Shown: positions 13,354-31,872 of the stretch, piece after piece
How positions within the stretch are numbered: position 1 is the stretch's first letter
How the letters are laid out: every line of letters begins with the position of its first letter
Origin: Escherichia phage EcNP1
Sequence record: NC_054910.1
DNA: 64,000 nucleotides
Direction: 5' to 3' (one strand)
Program-made: the position numbers and the translations under genes
The notes under the pieces: generated by a model
What the model was told of the DNA's origin: nothing
What the model saw: only the letters and a program-made list of their open reading frames with translations
The model's database searches: none

Positions 13354-14554
13354 ATTTTGTAATAATGTCAAACTGTTCTTTAAAGCAGAAGCTTGAATCT
13401 TGATGCTGATACAAAAATTCATAAGCTTTTTCACGTTCGCGGTCATAAAGAGCTCGGTCAGATGACAGTTCTTTAATACGTTCAAATGTTAATTCCATGT
13501 CATTTTCATCAAACCAAACGATACCGCTATCATGAGAAATTAATGGAGTATTATCAACACGGAATTTTAAATTTTCGCCCGTAGATTTCCAAAATACTGG
13601 AATTGTTCCACATGCACCAAGCTCGAGATGAGTATATTCTAAAGAACGTTGTAGATATTTTTTATCTAATTTACTCAGCTGATAACCAAATCCGGATTTA
13701 CTCATGCGTTCAAGCATTTCGCTATTTACATAACGATCAAGAATTTGCGTTGGCAAATTAGGAGCAATTTTAATTTGGTCTACTTGATGAAGACGATAAT
13801 ACTCGTATGGAATTCCTTTTTCTTTAATAGGAATGAACGCTGGAGAACGTTCCAGACCTTCCATAATAGTACTTAGTCCTGCAGGTTTAAGATGTTTTTC
13901 GTGAAAATCAAACATCTGATAAAAGCCTTTCCATGTAGTAGTACGACCAATCCAACGATTGATATTCATGTTAATTTCAGAAACATCTTTCCAGTAGGTT
14001 GATCGAACCTTCGCAATATCCATAGGAGGCTGAAAGTTATATACGGTCGGTGCTTCTTCAATATCATCAAACAGTGAAACAGTTTCTGGATACCATTCTT
14101 TCATTAAAACTTTATTAAAATCACCATTATCAGAATGGCTAAAAATAACATCAGCTCGACGAACAGTTTCTTCTAATCCCAAATTTCGGCGTAAAGAAAG
14201 AGAAGAATGGTCATGCTGATAAACTACAACACGAACCGAAGGTTTAATGTTATCAATAATTTTTTTATAGTTATTAATGATGTCTTCTTCTACTGAAGTA
14301 GCAGGAACTGAATTGATAATTAGAATATCACAATCATTTACCAGCTTAAGTGTTTTATCGTATTCTTTTGCCAATAAAACCGGAATTGAAAATGACTTAT
14401 AATCATGTGCGCAATTACGAGTAAATGATTTATCTTTAGCATAAACCAAAGTTACTTCATGACCATTTTTAATAAACCAATCACGTTGCTCAAGAGAAAA
14501 TTTAGTTACACCACAACCTTCAAGACCTCGAGCCATAAAAATACATACTTTCAT
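13352..14554 (-). CDS. a-gt: DNA alpha-glucosyltransferase
   Basis: 400 aa, near-identical to T4 alpha-gt as recalled (MRICIFMARGLEGCGVTKF...). Confidence 0.95.
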   Translation of the reverse strand: MKVCIFMARGLEGCGVTKFSLEQRDWFIKNGHEVTLVYAKDKSFTRNCAHDYKSFSIPVLLAKEYDKTLKLVNDCDILIINSVPATSVEEDIINNYKKIIDNIKPSVRVVVYQHDHSSLSLRRNLGLEETVRRADVIFSHSDNGDFNKVLMKEWYPETVSLFDDIEEAPTVYNFQPPMDIAKVRSTYWKDVSEINMNINRWIGRTTTWKGFYQMFDFHEKHLKPAGLSTIMEGLERSPAFIPIKEKGIPYEYYRLHQVDQIKIAPNLPTQILDRYVNSEMLERMSKSGFGYQLSKLDKKYLQRSLEYTHLELGACGTIPVFWKSTGENLKFRVDNTPLISHDSGIVWFDENDMELTFERIKELSSDRALYDREREKAYEFLYQHQDSSFCFKEQFDIITK

Positions 14555-18896: not shown

Positions 18897-19367
18897 TTAA
18901 TCATGTTTCCACACCCCATCGGTATTTGACCAAAGTCGCTGATTATCTGATCCTCGCCACAGCTTTTTGGTCGGAAGATTTTTCTCATACTTCCCATCAA
19001 TAATAACATCAACATATTTAAGCATTTCTAGTTGTTTAATATCTTCAAACTTATATCCTGTCCACAACCAAATGCTTTTATTGGGATAAAGATTTTTTAC
19101 TGTTTGAACAATGCAATGAACAACATCTCTATTATCAGGATAAAGAGGGTCTCCTCCAGTTATAGTTAATCCTTCTATATAATCATTATTCAAACATTTA
19201 ATTAATTGTTCCAGTGTTTCACCAGTGAATGGAACGCCATTTCTAGCATTCCACGTTGATTTATTATAACACCCTTCGCATTTATGCAAACAACCTGTAA
19301 CGAAAAGAACGACCCTGCATCCAGGGCCATTCACAAAATCGCAGGGATAAAATCTATCGTAATTCAT
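18897..19367 (-). CDS. nrdG: Anaerobic ribonucleotide reductase activase (radical SAM, CLHKCEGC)
   Basis: 156 aa; CxxxCxxC motif; T4 NrdG position. Confidence 0.92.
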   Translation of the reverse strand: MNYDRFYPCDFVNGPGCRVVLFVTGCLHKCEGCYNKSTWNARNGVPFTGETLEQLIKCLNNDYIEGLTITGGDPLYPDNRDVVHCIVQTVKNLYPNKSIWLWTGYKFEDIKQLEMLKYVDVIIDGKYEKNLPTKKLWRGSDNQRLWSNTDGVWKHD

Positions 19368-21181
19368 TGGTGTTTAACCCTATGCATGATTTCTTTATTT
19401 TTGCCGAGATTAAATCCGCGTTCATTCGGATTTCCCAAATAACCACAAGTTCTTCTTATTGTGTTCATCTTTTTAGGATCAGTTTCTCCACAAATAGAAC
19501 AAACAAACCCGTTTTCAGTAGGAGTCATTTCATGGGTACTTCCACACGTAAAACATTTATCTACTGGCATGTTAACACCAAAATAATCTAAATGTTGTGC
19601 AGCATAATCCCATACAGCCTCAAGACCTTTTAGGTTATTTTTCATATCAGGAAGTTCAACATAAGAAATGTGACCACCTGTCGCAATGAAATGATATGGG
19701 GCTTCGCGAGAAATCTTTTCAAATGGAGTAATATTTTCTTCTACCGAAACGTGGAAACTGTTAGTGTACCAGCCTTTATCGGTAACATCTTTTACACTTC
19801 CATATTTTTCGGTATCAAGTTTACAGAAGCGATAGCACAGGTTTTCAGCAGGTGTAGAATACAAACTAAAAGCAAAACCGGTTCTTTCAGTCCACTGCTT
19901 AAGATGAGCATTCATTTTAGTTAAAATTTCTTGTCCAATATCACGACCGACAAGAATATTCAATTCGTGAATACCAATGTATCCTAAGGACACTGAACTT
20001 CTACCGTTTTTAAATAACTCAATTATATCGTCATCAGGTTTAAGACGAACCCCGAATGCACCTTCTTGGTAAAGAATAGGAGCAACAGTAGCTTTAACTC
20101 CTTTTAAGGAACTAATTCTACACATCAATGCTTCAAAACATAAATCCATTCGCTCATTGAACAATTCGGCAAATTTCTGTTCATTGAACTGTGTTCCAAT
20201 ATAAGAATCTAGCGCAATGCGAGGAAGATTCAGTGTTACAACACCAAGATTATTACGTCCATCAAGAATTTCATTACCAGTCGAATCTTTCCATACACTC
20301 AAGAAACTACGACAACCCATTGGAGAAACAGGAATAGATGAACCGGTGATAGCTTTATTGTTCTTAGCCGAAATGATGTCAGGATACATTCTTTTACTTG
20401 CACACTCTAGAGCAAGCTGCTTAATATCATAGTTCGGATCGTCTTTATAAAGATTAACACCTTCTTCAACGAACATAACAAGTTTAGGGAAAATAGGAGT
20501 TATCCCGTCACGACCAAGACCTTTAATACGATTTTTCAGAATTGCTTTCTGAATCATTCGTTCAGTCCAGTCAGTTCCCGTACCAAATGTAATTGTTACA
20601 AAAGGCGTTTGTCCGTTTGAACTAAAGAGAGTATTTACTTCATATTCATAAGCTTGGAATGCATCGTATACGTCTTTTTCTGTTTTAGATTGGGCATAAT
20701 TCAATGCATCAGCGATTTGCCATTTTTCTGCATCCTCAATGTGTTTTGCGTAGGTGCGTTTAACATAAGGAGAAAGGACTTTATCTACATTCGCAAAAGT
20801 CGTTCCGCCATATTGATGAGAAGCAACCTGTGCAGTAATTTGTGCCATAATTGCAGTAGCAACGCCGATTGATTTAGGAGTTTCAATCTGTGCATTACCG
20901 AGCTTAAATCCGTTCTCAAGCATTCCTTTTAAATCTACTAAACAACAATTAGTAAATGGAAGAGCAGGGGAATAATCAATATCGTGGAAATGGATAATTC
21001 CGCTTTCATGCGCTTTCATAATAAAAGACGGGACCATATTTTTGGCAATGTGTTTAGACACAATACCAGCCATAAGGTCCCGTTGAGTTGGAAAAACACG
21101 AGAATCTTTATTAGCATTCTCGTTTAAAAGGTCTTTATTAGTTTTATGAATCAATCCTTCAATTTCTTTTTCAATTGTCAT
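19364..21181 (-). CDS. nrdD: Anaerobic ribonucleoside-triphosphate reductase, uninterrupted
   Basis: Contiguous 605 aa ORF; C-terminal glycyl-radical and Zn-ribbon region (CGYLG, CxxC); no intron. Confidence 0.95.
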   Translation of the reverse strand: MTIEKEIEGLIHKTNKDLLNENANKDSRVFPTQRDLMAGIVSKHIAKNMVPSFIMKAHESGIIHFHDIDYSPALPFTNCCLVDLKGMLENGFKLGNAQIETPKSIGVATAIMAQITAQVASHQYGGTTFANVDKVLSPYVKRTYAKHIEDAEKWQIADALNYAQSKTEKDVYDAFQAYEYEVNTLFSSNGQTPFVTITFGTGTDWTERMIQKAILKNRIKGLGRDGITPIFPKLVMFVEEGVNLYKDDPNYDIKQLALECASKRMYPDIISAKNNKAITGSSIPVSPMGCRSFLSVWKDSTGNEILDGRNNLGVVTLNLPRIALDSYIGTQFNEQKFAELFNERMDLCFEALMCRISSLKGVKATVAPILYQEGAFGVRLKPDDDIIELFKNGRSSVSLGYIGIHELNILVGRDIGQEILTKMNAHLKQWTERTGFAFSLYSTPAENLCYRFCKLDTEKYGSVKDVTDKGWYTNSFHVSVEENITPFEKISREAPYHFIATGGHISYVELPDMKNNLKGLEAVWDYAAQHLDYFGVNMPVDKCFTCGSTHEMTPTENGFVCSICGETDPKKMNTIRRTCGYLGNPNERGFNLGKNKEIMHRVKHQ

Positions 21182-21692: not shown

Positions 21693-21869
21693 TCAAGTAT
21701 TGTAAAACATTCGATGCAATCGCTTATATTGCCGAATCATCTTTTTAGTAGGACGAGAATAAGTTCCTACACAAGTGGTCATATTAGAGTCGGTAGGACT
21801 TCCTTTAATAAAAAGTTTCCAAACCTTACCACCATTTAACTTTTCAGTATAAACCAATTCAGTTTTCAT
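21693..21869 (-). CDS. Small hypothetical protein, 58 aa
   Basis: Manual translation MKTELVYTEKLNGG...; TAATG overlap with upstream stop; below ORF-track cutoff. Confidence 0.3.
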   Translation of the reverse strand: MKTELVYTEKLNGGKVWKLFIKGSPTDSNMTTCVGTYSRPTKKMIRQYKRLHRMFYNT

Positions 21870-22315
21870 TAAAATGCTCGGTCAGAAAAAGAAATTTGAG
21901 TTTCAAGCCATTCAATATATTCTGCCGCAGCTTGCATCAAATTTCCTTCATAGCCATCGTTGTTTTCTTGCGCAGCTAATTTAGCTAATGCATATGAAAT
22001 GCGTTCACCTTGAAAAGCGGCTTTAGGTTTATGAATAGCTTGATCAACTCGTTCTACAACTTCTTCAATCTCGCCATTTTCTACTGATTCAGTATTCCAC
22101 AAGCACCAATACGTAATTGGCTTATCATAGATGTTAATAATCTTTCCATCAGAAAGTTCAATTTCAATAATTCCAGTATCAGGTTCTATATCATCTTCGC
22201 ATTCTTTTGCGAGTTCACGAACTTTAAAGACAGTACCTGCACTAAGTTCTGGCCAATAATTACATAGCCCTTTATCAGCACGATTAATTCTAAACCACTT
22301 ATCTACTGTAATCAT
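21869..22315 (-). CDS. Hypothetical protein
   Basis: ORF track starts at TTG 22333; ATG at 22313-22315 with RBS GGAG preferred. Confidence 0.65.
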   Translation of the reverse strand: MITVDKWFRINRADKGLCNYWPELSAGTVFKVRELAKECEDDIEPDTGIIEIELSDGKIINIYDKPITYWCLWNTESVENGEIEEVVERVDQAIHKPKAAFQGERISYALAKLAAQENNDGYEGNLMQAAAEYIEWLETQISFSDRAF

Positions 22316-22349
22316 GTCCCATCTCCATATCAATTAAGTCATTTATCGT

Positions 22350-22438: not shown

Positions 22439-22759
22439 TTATAGCGTAATCCATTCTCGTATTGTCTGAGTTACTACACGTTCACGGGGCTCGACTAATT
22501 CAACAGTCGGAACTGCATAATACCAGTCAGAATGGTAAGAACCTGAACGGCATTCATTTACGGAAACATGTACATTATGTTTTGGGCTAAAATAAACACA
22601 CTGCCGATATTGACATTTGCCATCTTGTACCCAGTCTTCTATTTCGACAGGTTTAAGATAGTCTGAAAAATCAAAATCATAATTTTCTGAAAATGCATCA
22701 TGGTCTTCAATGATTTCACTCAGAACTGCATCAACATCTAATTTATTTTCAATAGTCAT
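22439..22759 (-). CDS. Hypothetical protein
   Basis: ORF track 106 aa. Confidence 0.6.
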   Translation of the reverse strand: MTIENKLDVDAVLSEIIEDHDAFSENYDFDFSDYLKPVEIEDWVQDGKCQYRQCVYFSPKHNVHVSVNECRSGSYHSDWYYAVPTVELVEPRERVVTQTIREWITL

Positions 22760-23568: not shown

Positions 23569-23872
23569 TTTCTTCTCGGTTAAATCGGTGTTTGCAATGA
23601 CGGCATTTATAACGAAGATTACTAGTCTGCCAATGGACTAATTGAACCTGTTCAGTACCGCATTCAGGACAATTAGGAACGTTTTTAGAAGCCCTTTCGC
23701 GACGTTCAACCATAACCATAATGGCATCCCAAGCTGGAGGTTTAAAGTCTAGATCGTCACAACCATGAATCTTTCCACGCATTTCTAGATCGTCTTCTTC
23801 ACCAGCCATAATAATTTTAATTAGACTGGAATTACTTGAAGCTGCAATATCTTCTAATAAACGCTTTTTCAT
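23555..23872 (-). CDS. Zn-ribbon protein (CPECG...CRHCKH)
   Basis: ORF track 105 aa; two CxxC pairs. Confidence 0.6.
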
Positions 23873-24795
23873 TTCAGTACCTCAATAGCATCACGTAAAC
23901 CATTTGCTTTGGCGGTTAAAGCCTTAATAACTTTAGTATGCTCTTCAATCTGTTTTTCAACTTCAATCAAACGGGCACTGAGATATTCGCGTTCTTCTTT
24001 CATAGTATCATTCCCATGATTGGGCTTTGGTGTAGGTTTAAATTTACTAGGGTCCTTTAACTTAATAACAACTTTAGTTTCAAACAGTGAAAGACCATAA
24101 TTCGTATTATCATCAAAGGATTCAACTACGTCCATTTTAGACAATAACGTACGAAGATTATAAGTCAAAGAACGAATCGTTTTATTATGTTTATTAGCTT
24201 CACGCGGTTTCATATATGGAAGATTTTTATATATTTCATGCGGAGCACAAACAATAATTGACAATTCAAATGGTCCATTCTGTGATGATGGAATAAATTT
24301 AGCCGTAACCCAATCTTTTACATTTACATTAATAGTACGGTCATCGCCATGACAAAACAGTCTACGAGAATGCTTAAAAAGCATATTCACATTATTATTA
24401 AATTCATGTGAAAACTCACTAGCAAATTTTTCTTTACTATTTTTAGAAAACCATTCTTCTAAATAAGTTCTTTTCACGTCATTAATAATATTAAATGTAA
24501 CAACATTAGCATTTGATACATTAGTCTCAATGTAGCTTGGATACATAAATTTTTTAACATTATTAACAGCTATCACAGAAGATAGTAATCGGGAACGTTT
24601 GAACCACTCTAGCAAAGAACCAAGAGAATGTGAATACGCATTTTGTGTATCTTTACAAATATGGTTTTCCCATCCAATATAGTCTAAAAAATCACGAAGA
24701 ATATTATTGATTACTGCTCTATGTCCTATCTGATAATTACGATGTTTAGTAATAAGACTGTCAAAATAATCAATATAATGTTTACGAGTTTTCAT
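23869..24795 (-). CDS. Hypothetical protein with C-terminal coiled coil
   Basis: ORF track 308 aa. Confidence 0.75.
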   Translation of the reverse strand: MKTRKHYIDYFDSLITKHRNYQIGHRAVINNILRDFLDYIGWENHICKDTQNAYSHSLGSLLEWFKRSRLLSSVIAVNNVKKFMYPSYIETNVSNANVVTFNIINDVKRTYLEEWFSKNSKEKFASEFSHEFNNNVNMLFKHSRRLFCHGDDRTINVNVKDWVTAKFIPSSQNGPFELSIIVCAPHEIYKNLPYMKPREANKHNKTIRSLTYNLRTLLSKMDVVESFDDNTNYGLSLFETKVVIKLKDPSKFKPTPKPNHGNDTMKEEREYLSARLIEVEKQIEEHTKVIKALTAKANGLRDAIEVLK

Positions 24796-24847
24796 GTTCT
24801 TCTCACTTGGTTAATGATTTATACTCCGAGCCATCCTTGGCTTTAAA

Positions 24848-25849
24848 TTACTTAATTAACTGTAAAGCTTGTTCCAAACGATCAAGGCGATTAACAGATT
24901 CTTCCCAAATCCTTTTAGCCTTCTCATAATCTTTCTGCGCTTTATTAGAAATTTCTAGAACTTCTTTATAAGCTTTTTCTAGTGCAATAACTTCTGGACG
25001 AATTTCTATCGGTTCAGGCGAATCGTCAAGACATTCCATTAGTTCTTCAAGGGTAGTTTCTTCTTTAGGAGTATTCACAATTTCATCACATTTTTGTTGG
25101 TAAATTTCTTTATCAGTCGGTGAGTACGTACGTTTCACTTCACGGAGGCTAATTATAATTTTATATCCTTCCCAACCGCACATATTTTTAAAAGGATAAG
25201 TATGAATACTTTTTACGGTTTCCATACAGCCCAAAGCCGCCTCTAATTGATAAGTTATAGTGCTAGCAATTGAGAAAAATTTATTAATATTCTTTTGGTT
25301 AGCGTCTGGTGTAAAAAATCCATAATTCACAAAAATAGCTACTTTATTTTTATCAAGTTCATATTCTTTTACGATAATCATATCAGAAGCCAAAGGATGA
25401 ATTTGACGATAATCGCCATAACATAATTTAGAAGCTGATTTTAGAATTTGTCCTTTGAAAAGTCTGAAATTACTAATCCAACGACGAGTAAAAATATTCT
25501 CAGGGTCTTCTTTATTATTAAGATGATAAGAATTAACATCACCGAACCAATTATATCCTACTACATCTTTAGTTCGTTTAATTTCTTTCCCAAATTTACC
25601 AAGAATATCTCTGTTGACTAAGTATGAAAGAAGACGAGACCCTTTAAAGGTTTTCTTAATGTCATCTTTATCTGTACGACTAGAAATTTCACGAACTTCG
25701 TGAATAAATCTGCTGGAAGAAACAATGCTTACATCAATATTATTGAGCCATTGATTGATAATAGAAAGAACACTATTCTGACTAGACATAGGTTTAACTT
25801 TATCATCAATAACGCTATTGAATGATTTGATATATTCGTTACGAGTCAT
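24848..25849 (-). CDS. Hypothetical protein with C-terminal coiled coil
   Basis: Internal start MTRNEYIKS with RBS GAGGAGA; ORF-track start would overlap promoter. Confidence 0.72.
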   Translation of the reverse strand: MTRNEYIKSFNSVIDDKVKPMSSQNSVLSIINQWLNNIDVSIVSSSRFIHEVREISSRTDKDDIKKTFKGSRLLSYLVNRDILGKFGKEIKRTKDVVGYNWFGDVNSYHLNNKEDPENIFTRRWISNFRLFKGQILKSASKLCYGDYRQIHPLASDMIIVKEYELDKNKVAIFVNYGFFTPDANQKNINKFFSIASTITYQLEAALGCMETVKSIHTYPFKNMCGWEGYKIIISLREVKRTYSPTDKEIYQQKCDEIVNTPKEETTLEELMECLDDSPEPIEIRPEVIALEKAYKEVLEISNKAQKDYEKAKRIWEESVNRLDRLEQALQLIK

Positions 25850-25873
25850 ATTAATCTCCTCAGTAGAAAGTAA

Positions 25874-25909
25874 GAACATTATACCACATCCTTGTGGCAA
25901 AGTAAACTA
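25874..25909 (-). promoter_or_regulatory. T4-type early promoter
   Basis: Plus agtaaac at 25901-25907 and cattatacca -10 block. Confidence 0.55.
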
Positions 25910-26935
25910 GTTTAGTGCATTTAGTGCATTGTTCAGTTTAGAACGTTGCTTCGTAAGATTTTTGACTTTTTCTTGAGCTTTTTCTAGCATCTTTTCAGCT
26001 TCTAGCACTTCATTAGTTGCTTTAACGAGTTCATCATCTACTGCCTTGATAGACTTCTCAATCGCATCTGCATGCCATTTTTCAACAGGTTTAAGACTCG
26101 GATTTTCAACAGGAAGAAAATTCACTTTATTGAATTTCCATGCATCCTTATTACCTGAACTATACATCCAAAATTTAGGATCGTTTGATGAGTAATTAGA
26201 TAAATTTAAATTTAAGTTATCTTGCACTTCTTGCTTTTTCTCTTGCGTGACTTCGTCCTTTCTCAAAAAATCGTATTTAAATGAAACGATCATATCAAGT
26301 TCATACGTTGTTGTATGTTCCCAATTTCGCTCAAAATGAGGTAAAATCTTAGACTGAACAGCGGCAACAACATCCATATACTTAAATGCTTCTGTCAACT
26401 GCGATTTAAGGCATTCGCAAATTGAAAGAGAATTTTTTGTATTAGGTTTAAAGCTAATTCGTGCAGTTCTATTATTTTCTTTTAATGGTCTTACTTCCAT
26501 CTGAAGAGTATAACCATCAAATTTCAGGTTCTTTAAGTTAATATCAGAACCTTTTAATCGACTCGCAGTTGATAAAATTTGCTTTAATTGTCTACGGAAC
26601 AGAGCAATAAATCTCCATTCAATACGATAATGATTTGGATTGAAAAATCCAGATGATAAATCGACCTTACTTTGACCAACGCCTTGAACAAATAAAGGAT
26701 TTTTATAATCAATAGTTTTACAGAAATCGGTGAGTTGCTCACGAGCAGTCATTTGTGTAATATATCCCGCTTTACTAAAATTACGCACCCATTCACTGCT
26801 ATTCGTATACTTAAAGTGATGAATAACACGATTAACTTTATCAGGGTCTAAATTATTTTCACACAAAAATGTCATAACATCACGAGTATAACTGGCATTA
26901 CGAACCATATCTTCAATTTGAGAACGAGTTTTCAT
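25907..26935 (-). CDS. Hypothetical protein with C-terminal coiled coil
   Basis: ORF track 342 aa. Confidence 0.75.
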   Translation of the reverse strand: MKTRSQIEDMVRNASYTRDVMTFLCENNLDPDKVNRVIHHFKYTNSSEWVRNFSKAGYITQMTAREQLTDFCKTIDYKNPLFVQGVGQSKVDLSSGFFNPNHYRIEWRFIALFRRQLKQILSTASRLKGSDINLKNLKFDGYTLQMEVRPLKENNRTARISFKPNTKNSLSICECLKSQLTEAFKYMDVVAAVQSKILPHFERNWEHTTTYELDMIVSFKYDFLRKDEVTQEKKQEVQDNLNLNLSNYSSNDPKFWMYSSGNKDAWKFNKVNFLPVENPSLKPVEKWHADAIEKSIKAVDDELVKATNEVLEAEKMLEKAQEKVKNLTKQRSKLNNALNALN

Positions 26936-26943
26936 GGTGTTCC

Positions 26944-27834
26944 TTAAGATTTAAGTAAATCAACAATTTTAATTAACTTTTCACGCTCAGATTTAGCTTT
27001 ACTACTCAATCCAGATAGTCTGAAAATTTCATCATCATATTGTTGAATAGAAATATTCAGCTCTTCAATCTGCTTATTAAAATAATCAATTTGTTCAGAA
27101 TGTTTTTCGTTACTACGAACCGGTACAGGTTTTGTAGGCAATTTAGTTGAACTGGATTCATCCGGGCGATAAATTAAAATACAACTTGAACCAATAGGGC
27201 ATTTAGCACCAGACGTATATTCTAATGTTCCAGCTTCTTTTAAAACTTCAAAAGCTAAACAGAGATGATGCCCCATATTAGCATAATCTGTAGAGTGAGC
27301 TCTGATGTAATAATCATCTCCACGAATACTAAATTTAAAGCATTTAAGGTCTTCTGTATTATTGGTCTTAAAAATCATTTGTTTATCTAAACCTTTAGCT
27401 AATCGAGCGCCTAATGCTAATAATCGTCTTTGATTTTCCCACAAATCCGCTATCATTTGATCGAATGATAATTTTGGCATCAGTCGACCATAAAGGTCAT
27501 ATCCTTTATTATAATTACGAAGGATTTCACTCGCGTTAATACGAGACAATGCTCCAATTTTATTAAGGGCTTTCATAATGCGATTAGATAAACTCATTCC
27601 AGATCCGCTTGTTCGCTGCAAATGTTTTTCTAATCCAAATCCAATATCAACTTTAAACTTATCTAAAATTTCGGCATGAACATCTTTATCAATAACATTC
27701 AAATCCAAAGTTGGGTTAAATCTATGAAAAAATTTATCTGGCTCTCCACGACGAAGTACAGTCCATTCATTCATCATTTTTTTATTAACTAATGATTTAA
27801 TTACTGCATTGACATTATTAATTACTACTGACAT
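26944..27834 (-). CDS. Hypothetical protein with C-terminal coiled coil
   Basis: Internal start MSVVINN with RBS GAGGAAAAT, removing overlap. Confidence 0.72.
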   Translation of the reverse strand: MSVVINNVNAVIKSLVNKKMMNEWTVLRRGEPDKFFHRFNPTLDLNVIDKDVHAEILDKFKVDIGFGLEKHLQRTSGSGMSLSNRIMKALNKIGALSRINASEILRNYNKGYDLYGRLMPKLSFDQMIADLWENQRRLLALGARLAKGLDKQMIFKTNNTEDLKCFKFSIRGDDYYIRAHSTDYANMGHHLCLAFEVLKEAGTLEYTSGAKCPIGSSCILIYRPDESSSTKLPTKPVPVRSNEKHSEQIDYFNKQIEELNISIQQYDDEIFRLSGLSSKAKSEREKLIKIVDLLKS

Positions 27835-28304: not shown

Positions 28305-28832
28305 TTATGCGAGTACCGTCTTTAACCGTTCTTCAAACTTCCGAAGAGTATTTTGGCGTTCAGCTCTTTGCTTTTTGTAAGTTTCAATACGCTCTGAAAT
28401 GAGAGTGTATCGTTCATTTACTGATTCTTTCATAAAATCAGGAATTTCACGAGAAGCTTTAATCTCATCAAATTTATCAATAACAGCTTGCTCTTCAGCA
28501 ATTAAGTTATCATACATTAAAATATCTTTCTTGATGAACTCAATATCTTCTTGAGTTACACGAGATAATTTAGATGCTTTATCCTTTTTGTACTGTTCGT
28601 TAGTATCACGAGACCAATGTAATGTACGATTTTTATTCGTATTCTTGTAAATTTCTACAATACCAATCTCATCGATAATAACGATCCAATTCCAACGGGA
28701 TTTATAAATTTGTCCTCCATCAACTGTGATTTCACCTCCGATTGAGATGTCATTAAAGAACTTGCTTTGTGCTTCAGATTTAAATTTACCATCGTTGTAA
28801 TTTACCAAGTTGAAAATATCTTTAGCATTCAT
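28305..28832 (-). CDS. Hypothetical protein
   Basis: ORF track 175 aa; early promoter upstream. Confidence 0.7.
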   Translation of the reverse strand: MNAKDIFNLVNYNDGKFKSEAQSKFFNDISIGGEITVDGGQIYKSRWNWIVIIDEIGIVEIYKNTNKNRTLHWSRDTNEQYKKDKASKLSRVTQEDIEFIKKDILMYDNLIAEEQAVIDKFDEIKASREIPDFMKESVNERYTLISERIETYKKQRAERQNTLRKFEERLKTVLA

Positions 28833-29296: not shown

Positions 29297-30265
29297 TTAT
29301 TTCAGAAGAGTAACCTCAGCAATTTCTTCCCAACCGTTTTTGTCGGTCATAATAAAGTCAGCAAGATAAAGAGCAGTACGCAGTGAAACATTGCGTAAAC
29401 GATTAACATTAACTTTCATCCATGATAACGCTTTATAAGTTTCTTCATCCGAAAGACCGCGCTTTTGCATCATGTCAGTTGAAAGAATAACATCTTCAAC
29501 CCTGACCATAATTTCTTCATTAGTGTGAACACCCAAATCCAAATAAACTGAGCGGGACACCAATGCTTGTAAGTGTGGAGCAAGTTTAGTACCACGGTCT
29601 AATTCGCGGTCAATGTCAACGTTTGTGATAAAAACAATCGTTCCTTTAAATTCAAACTCACGGTCAATGCCTTTTTCTTCTAAGTAAGAAGATGCAGTGC
29701 TCCAGCAGACTTTACGGGTCTCTCCAGTGTCCAGAGCAGCTTTTAGAAGATTAAGAATGTCCATATCAGAGAAAACATCCACATCATCAATCAAAAGGAC
29801 AGAATTCTCTTCACGATTATTCCAAAGCTGCTCATAAAGACCAATACCAGAGATTTTACCATTAATGCTTTTATATTCAATGTATCCATTATCATTTGCT
29901 TTATTTAAAGCTTTATCTAAAGAATACGTTTTACCAATACCTGCTGCGCCAGAGATAATCAATGAACGAATATTTCCATTAATAATACCATTCGTCATCA
30001 TTCCCATAACATTAAATCTTTTATTAATGCGGGTTTTCATATCTTCATATGATTCTTTAACTTCTTCAACTTTTACACCATCATATGAAATATCTGATTT
30101 GTAAACCCAAACACCGCGACGTTTACCGTCAATTTCAACAAAAACTTTACCATCTCCTTGTGCATCTACCGGAGCATTATCTGGGAACCATTCGCCTAAG
30201 AGCTCAAAAGTTCCAGAGATTTCTTTACCGAAGTAGATACCCTTATTGATAGTTACAGTTTTCAT
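29297..30265 (-). CDS. P-loop NTPase (Walker A GAAGIGKT, Walker B LLIDDVD)
   Basis: Start set to MKTVTINK (ATG 30263-30265, RBS GGAGAA); motifs read from translation. Confidence 0.8.
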   Translation of the reverse strand: MKTVTINKGIYFGKEISGTFELLGEWFPDNAPVDAQGDGKVFVEIDGKRRGVWVYKSDISYDGVKVEEVKESYEDMKTRINKRFNVMGMMTNGIINGNIRSLIISGAAGIGKTYSLDKALNKANDNGYIEYKSINGKISGIGLYEQLWNNREENSVLLIDDVDVFSDMDILNLLKAALDTGETRKVCWSTASSYLEEKGIDREFEFKGTIVFITNVDIDRELDRGTKLAPHLQALVSRSVYLDLGVHTNEEIMVRVEDVILSTDMMQKRGLSDEETYKALSWMKVNVNRLRNVSLRTALYLADFIMTDKNGWEEIAEVTLLK

Positions 30266-30295
30266 TTTATTCTCCAATTTCACATTTGTTTTGAT

Positions 30296-30334: not shown

Positions 30335-30598
30335 TTATTTTAATGTTCGCCAAATTTTTACTGCTTCGCGACGAGATACTTCTACAGCTCCAAGTTCTAC
30401 GGCTTTTTGGCGGCGGCGCGCGTGTAAGTCATAATGTTTAATGCGTTTATCTTGAAACCAAGAGCGTTTCATTCCTATTGCTTCTGCCATTTCATGAAGC
30501 TCTTCAATATCTCCATCAGTGAACATATGACAATTTTTAGTTGGATGACCGCGAAGTTTCCATCCATGATTCATTAAAACATCTACGTAAACTGTCAT
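30335..30598 (-). CDS. Hypothetical protein
   Basis: ORF track 87 aa. Confidence 0.6.
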   Translation of the reverse strand: MTVYVDVLMNHGWKLRGHPTKNCHMFTDGDIEELHEMAEAIGMKRSWFQDKRIKHYDLHARRRQKAVELGAVEVSRREAVKIWRTLK

Positions 30599-30744
30599 TG
30601 ATTCTGCTCCAAATATGTTTCTATAATTTTCTGAGCGAGATAAACTGCGTTATCTTCAGTTGCATCTTCTAAGAAATTTTCAAAACAAGCTGAAATCTCT
30701 TCTGTGTCAATCAACTTTTTTACTTCAATTAACGTAGTTTTCAT
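30595..30744 (-). CDS. Small hypothetical protein
   Basis: Internal start MKTTLIEVKK with RBS GGGGGAA. Confidence 0.5.
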   Translation of the reverse strand: MKTTLIEVKKLIDTEEISACFENFLEDATEDNAVYLAQKIIETYLEQNQ

Positions 30745-30773
30745 TTTATTCCCCCAAATCCACATCAGTTGAT

Positions 30774-30811
30774 AGTTGTATAGTACCATAAAGCTTTATG
30801 CTTGTAAACAA
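30774..30811 (-). promoter_or_regulatory. T4-type early promoter
   Basis: Plus gttgatagttgtatagtacca...tgtaaacaactttgtga (30803-30809). Confidence 0.7.
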
Positions 30812-30858: not shown

Positions 30859-31872
30859 TCATTTATAATAACTTCGGTGGTTTTCAAGATATACCTCTTC
30901 AACGAACTTGTCCCAGAACTTCATGTCTACCTTATCAGGCATACCGTTCTTAGCTGCCTGGATGGCTAGGACTTCAACCAAATCAACAGTATCTTCAAGA
31001 AGTTCTTGAACTTCTTTAAATGGTAATTCACCGGCTTTAATCAGCTTAATGATAGAGGCTTCGCGCAATGGGAACGCCAAATCACCTGTTTGGTAGATTT
31101 CCATCAATTGATACCCTGCGCGATAAGCATGACTCAGAGCTTTCCAGTCAATACCTTCATTAGCTTCAGCCTTACGAGCACGTTCACCATATTCCGCATC
31201 GAGCTTATTCAGAGATTGCTTGAGCTCGATTAAAGACAAGGTGGTTTGGTACTTACGTCCAAGAACAGTATAGAACGTTTGAGGACCTGTTTTCTCGTGG
31301 TTATGGAATACCCATTCACAGAACTCGTTTTCAGGAAGCCGATGTTTAATATCTACAATTTTAGTACGACGTTGTCCTTGTGTTCCATCTTCTCGGTAAT
31401 CAACCCACTGATCGGGGATTTGATTAACTACTTTCAATACATTACGCAATGCAGCCAAACGAGAACCCTTAACACCATATTTAGAAGCTTGCTTACGCAC
31501 ATATCCTAAATAGGCTTTCATGTTAGTTGTATAAAACCGTGAACGATTGTCTTGGATAAATTTCCATACATCAGGCAAATCAGATTTAACTACTAGTTCA
31601 GGCGGAGTGTGAAGCATATCCAATGCTACAGTTTCACCGTCTGCTGCTAATTTAAAGAAATACTTAAGACTGTATAGTTCATGGTCAATATCATCTTTAG
31701 TGTTTTTAGATGATGTGTTGTTAGTGTTTTTACTCATATGCTCTTTAACATTTCCGATAAGAATATCGCGAGCAGGAGGAACAAAGATTTCTTTAAAATC
31801 TACATCAGATTCTGGAGTAGAAGTTCCATAAAGATGACTACCAAAATAGCTTTTCATTACTGTTTTCATCAT
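30859..31872 (-). CDS. Nucleotidyltransferase-fold protein (GS-x10-DVD motif)
   Basis: 337 aa; N-terminal YFGSHLYGTSTPESDVDF resembles Pol-beta-type NTase signature. Confidence 0.78.
   Translation of the reverse strand: MMKTVMKSYFGSHLYGTSTPESDVDFKEIFVPPARDILIGNVKEHMSKNTNNTSSKNTKDDIDHELYSLKYFFKLAADGETVALDMLHTPPELVVKSDLPDVWKFIQDNRSRFYTTNMKAYLGYVRKQASKYGVKGSRLAALRNVLKVVNQIPDQWVDYREDGTQGQRRTKIVDIKHRLPENEFCEWVFHNHEKTGPQTFYTVLGRKYQTTLSLIELKQSLNKLDAEYGERARKAEANEGIDWKALSHAYRAGYQLMEIYQTGDLAFPLREASIIKLIKAGELPFKEVQELLEDTVDLVEVLAIQAAKNGMPDKVDMKFWDKFVEEVYLENHRSYYK

Follow-up and report, generated by a model that had tools for sequence, protein, structure and literature searches.

Bacteriophage T4 is the best-studied phage, and about half of its genes are still without a function. 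A function has been published for its gene nrdC.5: a T4 clone with compensatory deletions lost plating on ECOR17, plasmid-borne nrdC.5 restores the plating of the deletion clone on Dsr1-carrying cells, and Dsr1, a defence-associated sirtuin NADase, is countered in this way by T4 nrdC.5 (Srikant, Guegler and Laub, eLife 2022, PMC9391042). The TPR sensor of Dsr1 has been reported to recognise phage major capsid proteins (2026 preprint, PMC12803255). DSR2, the sister system of Dsr1, is counteracted or repressed by DSAD1 from an SPbeta-group phage, according to three reports (PMC10981675, PMC11087589, PMC10973363). Furthermore, T4 has several other small anti-defence genes that lie in accessory clusters, namely those of Gp49.2 (anti-OLD; it is the T6 protein that inhibits OLD defence, PMC13096335), TifA (anti-ToxN), Dmd, AdfA and the Lon inhibitor PinA. 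Here we analyse nrdC.5 together with its neighbours nrdC.3, nrdC.4 and nrdC.6 in a 64,000-nucleotide (nt) stretch of Escherichia phage EcNP1 (NC_054910.1), which we call the window. The explanation that we favour, with some reserve, is that nrdC.3-nrdC.6 are strongly diverged paralogs, arranged in tandem, which act as an early anti-defence battery. The genes, their order and their dispensability have long been known, and the counter-defence role of nrdC.5 is already published; what is modestly new is that three database families are unified as one superfamily with a head-linker-coil layout, and that a role is predicted for three genes.

The window gene at 25907-26935 (minus strand, 342 amino acids (aa) plus stop) is the orthologue of the T4 anti-Dsr1 gene, with 95% protein identity, the same synteny and a match along the whole DUF7235 model (PF23882, positions 1-307 of 307; 432.6 bits where 30 is the gathering cut-off, E = 1.2e-129). 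By this identity the anti-Dsr1 function can be transferred from T4 to the window copy as a putative one. The other three genes appear to be remote paralogs of nrdC.5 with the same domain order, although their aligned identity to it is below 20% in profile alignments. DSAD1 may be considered a functional analogue of NrdC.5, both being phage proteins that would neutralise a defence-associated sirtuin NADase; the array proteins showed no similarity to DSAD1 in sequence or in fold. With Gp49.2, TifA, Dmd, AdfA and PinA the array shares that the genes are early, non-essential, variable and clustered in hyperplastic regions, and two of them, Gp49.2 and PinA, are encoded less than 2 kb from the array in this window. 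However, those inhibitors are single small proteins, whereas the array consists of four paralogs of about 300 aa with a common coiled-coil tail.

A first-pass annotation of the window had singled out four consecutive open reading frames (ORFs), each ending in a heptad-like segment, as possible diverged paralogs. The four ORFs are indeed there, all of them on the minus strand (308, 333, 342 and 296 aa), and the positions by which they had been named (23869, 24848, 25907 and 26944) are their 3' (stop) ends. By megablast the 4.8 kb around the array have an identity of 100% with Escherichia phage vB_EcoM_Nami and of about 94% with T4. Judged by its sequence, the source of the window is a T4-like coliphage, and the four ORFs correspond to nrdC.3, nrdC.4, nrdC.5 and nrdC.6, early accessory genes of T4. 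Their order is that of the T4T annotation, with nrdC.3-nrdC.6 co-directional, separated by short gaps and flanked by nrdC.2 and nrdC.7, and the protein identity to T4T is 96% for nrdC.3, 90% for nrdC.4, 95% for nrdC.5 and 97% for nrdC.6. The most variable member, nrdC.3 (23869-24795, minus, 308 aa plus stop), and nrdC.4 (24848-25849, minus, 333 aa plus stop; 88-91% identity to its T4-group orthologues) both match PHROG 1435 (phrog_1435, E = 1e-100 and 7e-165 respectively), and homologues of nrdC.4 carry PF26897. The nrdC.5 protein matches PHROG 2351 (E = 3e-171). The most conserved member is nrdC.6 (26944-27834, minus, 296 aa plus stop from the T4-annotated ATG), with 96-99% identity across the Tequatrovirus loci compared; it matches PHROG 2257 (phrog_2257, E = 1e-151) and its homologues carry PF26899. 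All four PHROG matches are full-length. When the four genes were compared with those of four related phages, the ratio of non-synonymous to synonymous substitution rates (dN/dS) was 0.05-0.33, and therefore the four ORFs are real coding genes.

Regarding the relationship among the four proteins, nrdC.3 and nrdC.4 are plainly homologous at the sequence level (BLASTP E = 6e-6 across 269 residues; hhalign probability 98%, E = 1e-13 to 1e-15; common PHROG 1435). For the rest profile methods were needed. With the first family profiles, nrdC.3 aligned to nrdC.5 at 81-83% probability (E = 1e-5) and to nrdC.6 at 76-77% (E = 2e-5), both sub-threshold but collinear, and nrdC.4 aligned to nrdC.5 at 35-48%. 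The real scores were 32-45, while reversed targets scored 17-19 and shuffles of 15-column blocks did not exceed 23-26; nrdC.4 against nrdC.6 did not beat these controls. In a leave-one-family-out comparison, orthologues from Mosigvirus, Dhakavirus, Karamvirus and Tegunavirus were added, redundancy was reduced, and each family was aligned by hhalign to a single profile merged from the remaining three families. The probability was 98.2% when nrdC.3 was left out (E = 3e-14, 260 columns), 98.0% for nrdC.4 (E = 3e-13, 185 columns), 96.2% for nrdC.5 (E = 2e-9, 170 columns) and 94.8% for nrdC.6 (E = 5e-8, 191 columns). The reversed controls scored 14.7-21 with a probability of at most 1%, apart from one control with a score of 31 and 13%. 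The match of nrdC.6 is confined to the N-terminal domain, and therefore it is not an artefact of the coiled coil. As unrelated controls, the neighbours nrdC.8, nrdC.10 and nrdC.11 gave only E of at least 0.036 against every family.

The six pairwise alignments agree on a single register, in which nrdC.3 residue 62 corresponds to nrdC.4 residue 65, nrdC.5 residue 50 and nrdC.6 residue 87. The aligned motifs are a helix F/L-x5-h-[L/I]-[S/T]-x3-A-x3-h-x2-[F/Y] and a long helix ending in [S/A]-[R/K]-L (R145-L146 in nrdC.3, R126-L127 in nrdC.5, R144-L145 in nrdC.6), which is followed by D-x-x-[T/Q]. Furthermore, the N-terminal motif M(K)TR-x-[E/H]-[Y/F]-I-x-x-F is common to the nrdC.3, nrdC.4 and nrdC.5 clades. 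Thus the paralogy that the first-pass annotation had suggested is borne out by the merged profiles, while pairwise profile alignment, by which it had proposed to check the idea, is sufficient for nrdC.3 and nrdC.4 and remains below threshold for the other pairs. From these alignments we regard nrdC.3, nrdC.4 and nrdC.5 with high confidence as diverged paralogs, and nrdC.6 with good but lower confidence. A recent duplication of the array genes is ruled out, because the DNA repeats between them are only patches of 17-36 nt. We also looked at two other candidates for membership. The nrdC.8 protein (28305-28832, minus, 175 aa) has a heptad-like C-terminal helix too, ranking fourth among the 75 window ORFs scored as described below, but it lacks profile similarity (E of at least 0.25), and the three 350-aa genes of Aeromonas phage avDM3 are unrelated and without a coil.

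All four proteins share one build, which consists of an N-terminal, probably alpha/beta, domain of about 220-250 aa, a Pro-rich linker that is probably disordered and a heptad-repeat helix of 46-60 aa. The heptads were scored with a home-made measure (neither COILS nor MARCOIL) calibrated on the window itself, using 28-residue windows over its 75 ORFs of at least 100 aa. The best 28-residue window was at the extreme C-terminus in all four proteins, and these best windows ranked 1 (nrdC.5), 3 (nrdC.3), 6 (nrdC.4) and 7 (nrdC.6) among the 75; compared with shuffled sequences, z was 2.8-5.6. When the families are aligned, hydrophobic residues recur in every tail with a dominant period of 3.5 residues, and LIVMFY residues occupy 58-71% of the a/d positions versus 10-19% of the others, in one register across 46-60 residues. 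The tails of all four end in a similar h-x-x-A/h-h-x-x-L-K motif. Therefore, the heptad-like ends noted at the first pass hold for each protein, also by this measure of coiled-coil tendency. Because the heptads are conserved, the tails are predicted, though only predicted, to be a coiled-coil oligomerisation domain.

In nrdC.3 the N-terminal domain (24061-24795, minus, aa 1-245) is followed by a Pro/Lys-rich linker (24010-24060, minus, aa 246-262, LKDPSKFKPTPKPNHGN in the translation), which aligns to the nrdC.6 linker in hhalign, and by the heptad-repeat helix (23872-24009, minus, aa 263-308; score 0.85, z = 4.5, period 3.5, a/d fraction 0.71 versus 0.12). The helix of nrdC.4 (24851-24988, minus, aa 288-333, ending in RLDRLEQALQLIK; score 0.76, z = 3.6, period 3.5, a/d 0.58 versus 0.17) comes after an acidic Pro-rich linker (24989-25084, minus, aa 256-287). 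The C-terminal helix of nrdC.5 (25910-26089, minus, aa 283-342, ending in KLNNALNALN) has a score of 0.91, z = 5.6 and an a/d fraction of 0.65 versus 0.10, and it follows a low-confidence region (26090-26269, minus, aa 223-282) that includes the Pro-rich LPVENPSLKPVEK. In nrdC.6 a disordered linker (27109-27156, minus, aa 227-242, TKLPTKPVPVRSNEK) leads to two C-terminal helices (26947-27108, minus, aa 243-272 and 278-295), between which the chain is kinked at SGLSS and the second of which closes the protein with KLIKIVDLLKS. A Pro/Lys-rich linker had been expected before each tail, and the sequences agree with this in three of the four proteins (nrdC.3 KDPSKFKPTPKPNHG, nrdC.5 LPVENPSLKPVEK, nrdC.6 STKLPTKPVPVRSNEK), whereas the linker of nrdC.4 is Pro/Glu-rich (NTPKEETT...DDSPEPIEIRPE).

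We obtained AlphaFold2 models of two of the proteins. For nrdC.6 the mean predicted local distance difference test score (pLDDT) was 76.7 and the predicted template modelling score 0.65, and the tail helices 243-272 and 278-295 come after a segment with pLDDT below 50; in this monomer model the tail is a helical hairpin, a point against the predicted oligomerisation. For nrdC.5 the model has a single helix at 283-341 with pLDDT 80-92, and residues 223-279 are below 50. The order of elements is alike in the low-confidence nrdC.5 model and in the nrdC.6 model: helices, a long helix, a beta-hairpin, a helix, a beta-hairpin, the disordered linker and the C-terminal helix. A Foldseek search of the nrdC.6 model against the PDB gave no significant match (best E = 0.035, template modelling score at most 0.24). 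Against BFVD the same model matched its own family and retrieved nrdC.6-like proteins from phages of the Karamvirus, Pectobacterium, Acinetobacter and Serratia groups. Matches at 10-15% identity (E = 2e-7 to 4e-5) came from Enterobacter phage IME523, Pectobacterium phage PM2 and Acinetobacter phage Acj9, and therefore the fold is spread among T4-like phages of other hosts. No PDB chain matched the family profiles by sequence, and searches of Pfam, NCBIfam, PADLOC and PDB sequences returned no informative domain, only weak matches to coiled-coil segments. Many GenBank phage records call nrdC.3-nrdC.11 'thioredoxin', a label propagated from the gene name nrdC.x. We rejected a thioredoxin or glutaredoxin function for the four proteins, whose translations have no Pfam or NCBIfam match to either family and no CxxC.

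Regarding the distribution, tblastn against 50,697 phage records gave a match to nrdC.3 in 652 records, to nrdC.4 in 552, to nrdC.5 in 581 and to nrdC.6 in 740, all of them T4-like phages of enterobacteria. By these matches the family is confined to T4-like phages, in one to four copies beside nrdC; likewise, a hidden Markov model (HMM) of nrdC.3 plus nrdC.4 found no relatives beyond T4-like phages among 1.84 billion representative proteins. The array is composed of nrdC.6, nrdC.5, nrdC.4 and nrdC.3 in Tequatrovirus, of nrdC.6-like, nrdC.5-like and nrdC.3-like genes in Mosigvirus, and of nrdC.6, an nrdC.5-like gene and nrdC.4 in Dhakavirus. Karamvirus has one nrdC.6-like gene, Tegunavirus one nrdC.6-like gene and a second ORF, left unassigned, with a similar coiled-coil tail, and Jiaodavirus a 324-aa gene that is weakly nrdC.4-like. 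In the phage records the identity drops along the array, being mostly 95-99% for nrdC.6, 90-99% for nrdC.5 and 80-95% for nrdC.4, and bimodal for nrdC.3, whose identity is at least 90% in 137 records, about 61% in 358 and lower than 60% in 156 (the sampled ones, mostly of the Mosigvirus type, at about 55%). The alleles of about 61% identity sit in genomes that are otherwise about 93% identical. The Karamvirus nrdC.6-like gene adjoining nrdC.2 (for example at 13544-14539 of locus L009) also has two allele classes, of 90-95% and 60-65%, which parallels nrdC.3 of Tequatrovirus.

The dN/dS values of the array exceed those of most conserved neighbours, which are mostly at most 0.05 (nrdD, 49, nrdC, nrdC.1, nrdC.8 and nrdC.9). 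Rearrangements were found as well. In phage ACG-C40 (locus L006, 5802-6213) a deletion has brought the beginning of nrdC.5 up against the last part of nrdC.3, while nrdC.6 is retained. A separate database protein (P0119) is an nrdC.5::nrdC.3 fusion with its junction at the microhomology FNKVN/FNNNVN. The nrdC.6 protein of Shigella phage Sf25 (P0121) carries an internal tandem duplication of 82 aa. Furthermore, nrdC.1-6 were lost spontaneously as a block from T4 during CRISPR-based genome reduction (PMC9825161), and therefore the block is dispensable in the laboratory. The array genes are thus accessory and variable.

In the mechanism that we propose, the array genes would be expressed early in infection and be dispensable in laboratory hosts. 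The fast-evolving N-terminal domain of each protein would bind a particular host immune protein, and the conserved coiled coil would give a dimer or a higher oligomer, which may provide a gain in avidity or match an oligomeric target. In the simplest form NrdC.5 would bind Dsr1 and block its sensing or activation, by analogy with DSAD1 and DSR2; this step is proposed because the TPR sensor of Dsr1 is reported to recognise the capsid protein. By homology to nrdC.5, the products of nrdC.3, nrdC.4 and nrdC.6 would act likewise on other defence proteins, and we infer that all four are anti-defence proteins. The genomic context is compatible with this. The gp49.2 orthologue (22439-22759, minus, 94% identical to T4) and the gene of the Lon-protease inhibitor PinA (21869-22333, minus, PF10465, E = 1.7e-48) lie nearby, and therefore the array sits within a cluster of host-factor inhibitors. 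A more specific version, which we put forward only tentatively, is that T4-like phages duplicate and swap one modular inhibitor scaffold, built of a conserved core, a linker that is flexible and the coil, each copy of which blocks a different immune sensor through its N-terminal surface, and that the tails might mix into joint oligomers in which specificities are combined.

Several results weigh against the anti-defence battery, and some of them would favour other explanations. Only nrdC.3 and nrdC.4 might be true paralogs, nrdC.5 or nrdC.6 or both being unrelated ORFans that acquired an amphipathic helix independently, so that the profile matches come from composition or secondary structure. 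In pairwise BLASTP among the four proteins nrdC.5 and nrdC.6 had no significant similarity, only nrdC.3 and nrdC.4 giving a significant match; the HMM search returned nine matches, all nrdC.3-like or nrdC.4-like and none nrdC.5-like or nrdC.6-like; and there was no nrdC.3, nrdC.4 or nrdC.5 entry among the top 50 BFVD matches of the nrdC.6 model. The nrdC.5 model was poor (mean pLDDT 54.8, from a shallow alignment) and was left out of the fold search. Pfam and PHROGs treat the proteins as three families (DUF7235/PF23882 for nrdC.5, PF26899 for nrdC.6, PF26897 for nrdC.4). Some profile pairs are weak as well, namely nrdC.4 with nrdC.6 (0.8-49%) and nrdC.5 with nrdC.6 (0.5-53%), and when hhalign was run with alignments dominated by the nrdC.4 family, nrdC.5 reached 53%, nrdC.6 2% and nrdC.5 against nrdC.6 0.5%, in the same register. 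Nevertheless, we consider independent origins unlikely, since the leave-one-family-out matches of nrdC.6 and nrdC.5 extend over 170-191 columns of the N-terminal domain while reversed scores were 17-21, the block shuffles fell short of the real scores, the six alignments close on one register, the unrelated neighbours gave nothing comparable, the synteny is conserved, and secondary-structure elements follow one another in the same order in the two models.

Granted the homology, the function may be read differently. The genes could have a housekeeping or host-takeover role apart from immunity, for example in host transcription, replication or nucleotide metabolism, in which case nrdC.5 would act on Dsr1 only indirectly. 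With this agree that nrdC.6 is 95-99% identical in most Tequatrovirus records with dN/dS of 0.05-0.10, a conservation equal to that of some core genes and less easily reconciled with an arms race; that the nucleotide-metabolism genes nrdD, nrdC and tk surround the array; and that the literature searched held no mechanism for nrdC.5 and no direct binding of NrdC.5 to Dsr1. Nor did that literature mention a function for nrdC.3, nrdC.4 or nrdC.6; the functional data concern nrdC.5 only, and the dN/dS of the array is below 1 throughout, giving no gene-wide positive selection. However, the array is dispensable in laboratory hosts, presence/absence and allele replacement are typical of accessory genes, and the neighbours include proven host-factor inhibitors, and we hold a role outside immunity to be quite improbable. 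We also give little chance to the idea that the four proteins assemble into one hetero-oligomeric complex, zipped together by the tails and acting jointly on a single target. The heptad layout and terminal motif are alike in the four tails, the genes follow one another in the same direction at short distances, and the tail-only profiles of nrdC.3 and nrdC.6 match at 40% across 42 columns, all of which a joint complex would explain. However, such a complex agrees poorly with a copy number of one to four between genera, with the replacement of nrdC.3 by a 61%-identical allele while its neighbours are still 88-99% identical, or with ACG-C40, which has nrdC.6 without intact nrdC.3-nrdC.5. Finally, plasmid nrdC.5 alone rescued the T4 deletion clone (PMC9391042, where the part of the text considered does not give the extent of the deletion). 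Therefore, an early anti-defence battery of diverged paralogs is the explanation that we retain.

Some further features of the locus concern the starts of the genes. A 350-aa ORF for nrdC.4, opening at a TTG and reaching 25900, is an artefact: the TTG falls inside a promoter-like site, TTTACT-17 nt-(TG)gTATAAT (25878-25906, minus; 10 of 12 matches, extended TG), which lies immediately upstream of nrdC.4, and a GAGGAG Shine-Dalgarno sequence and the ATG at 25849 come after this site. In total, promoter-like sites are no more numerous in this region than expected from shuffled sequence, and therefore the site is assigned by its position and by its likeness to the T4 early promoter consensus. The start regions of nrdC.3 (24784-24802) and nrdC.5 (26924-26942) are alike at 17 of 19 nt (GAA.A.CATGAAAACTCGT, coding strand), and both proteins begin with MKTR; this likeness either goes back to the duplication or reflects a constraint on initiation.

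Around the array, nrdD (19364-21181, minus) is an uninterrupted ORF of 605 aa, while the T4T copy is split by a group I intron carrying I-TevII, and therefore the window phage is without that intron. Beyond nrdC.8, the only matches of nrdC.10 (29297-30283, minus) are sub-threshold ones to P-loop families (AAA and STAND NTPases), and nrdC.11 (30859-31872, minus) encodes a nucleotidyltransferase of the RlaP type (PF10127, E = 3.8e-13). The two genes are conserved far more widely than the array and extend to phages of Vibrio and Aeromonas and to jumbo phages. Between them, at 30335-30789 (minus), the window has a gene with a DUF4031 domain (PF13223, E = 8e-22) and an ORF of 64 aa; no gene is annotated there in T4T, and a comparable insertion is present in ACG-C40.

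In other respects the finding is an ordinary one, with no sign of a new kind of biological system. Remote paralogy to the anti-Dsr1 gene makes three uncharacterised genes concrete candidates for counter-defence screens, and the layout of a variable head, a linker and a conserved coil is open to experimental dissection. The bimodal alleles of nrdC.3 and of its Karamvirus counterpart point to host-range determinants that may be relevant for the choice of T4-like therapy phages. If the tentative reading of one modular scaffold were true, nrdC.3, nrdC.4 and nrdC.6 and the bimodal nrdC.3 alleles would mark three or more undiscovered pairs of defence and counter-defence in E. coli.

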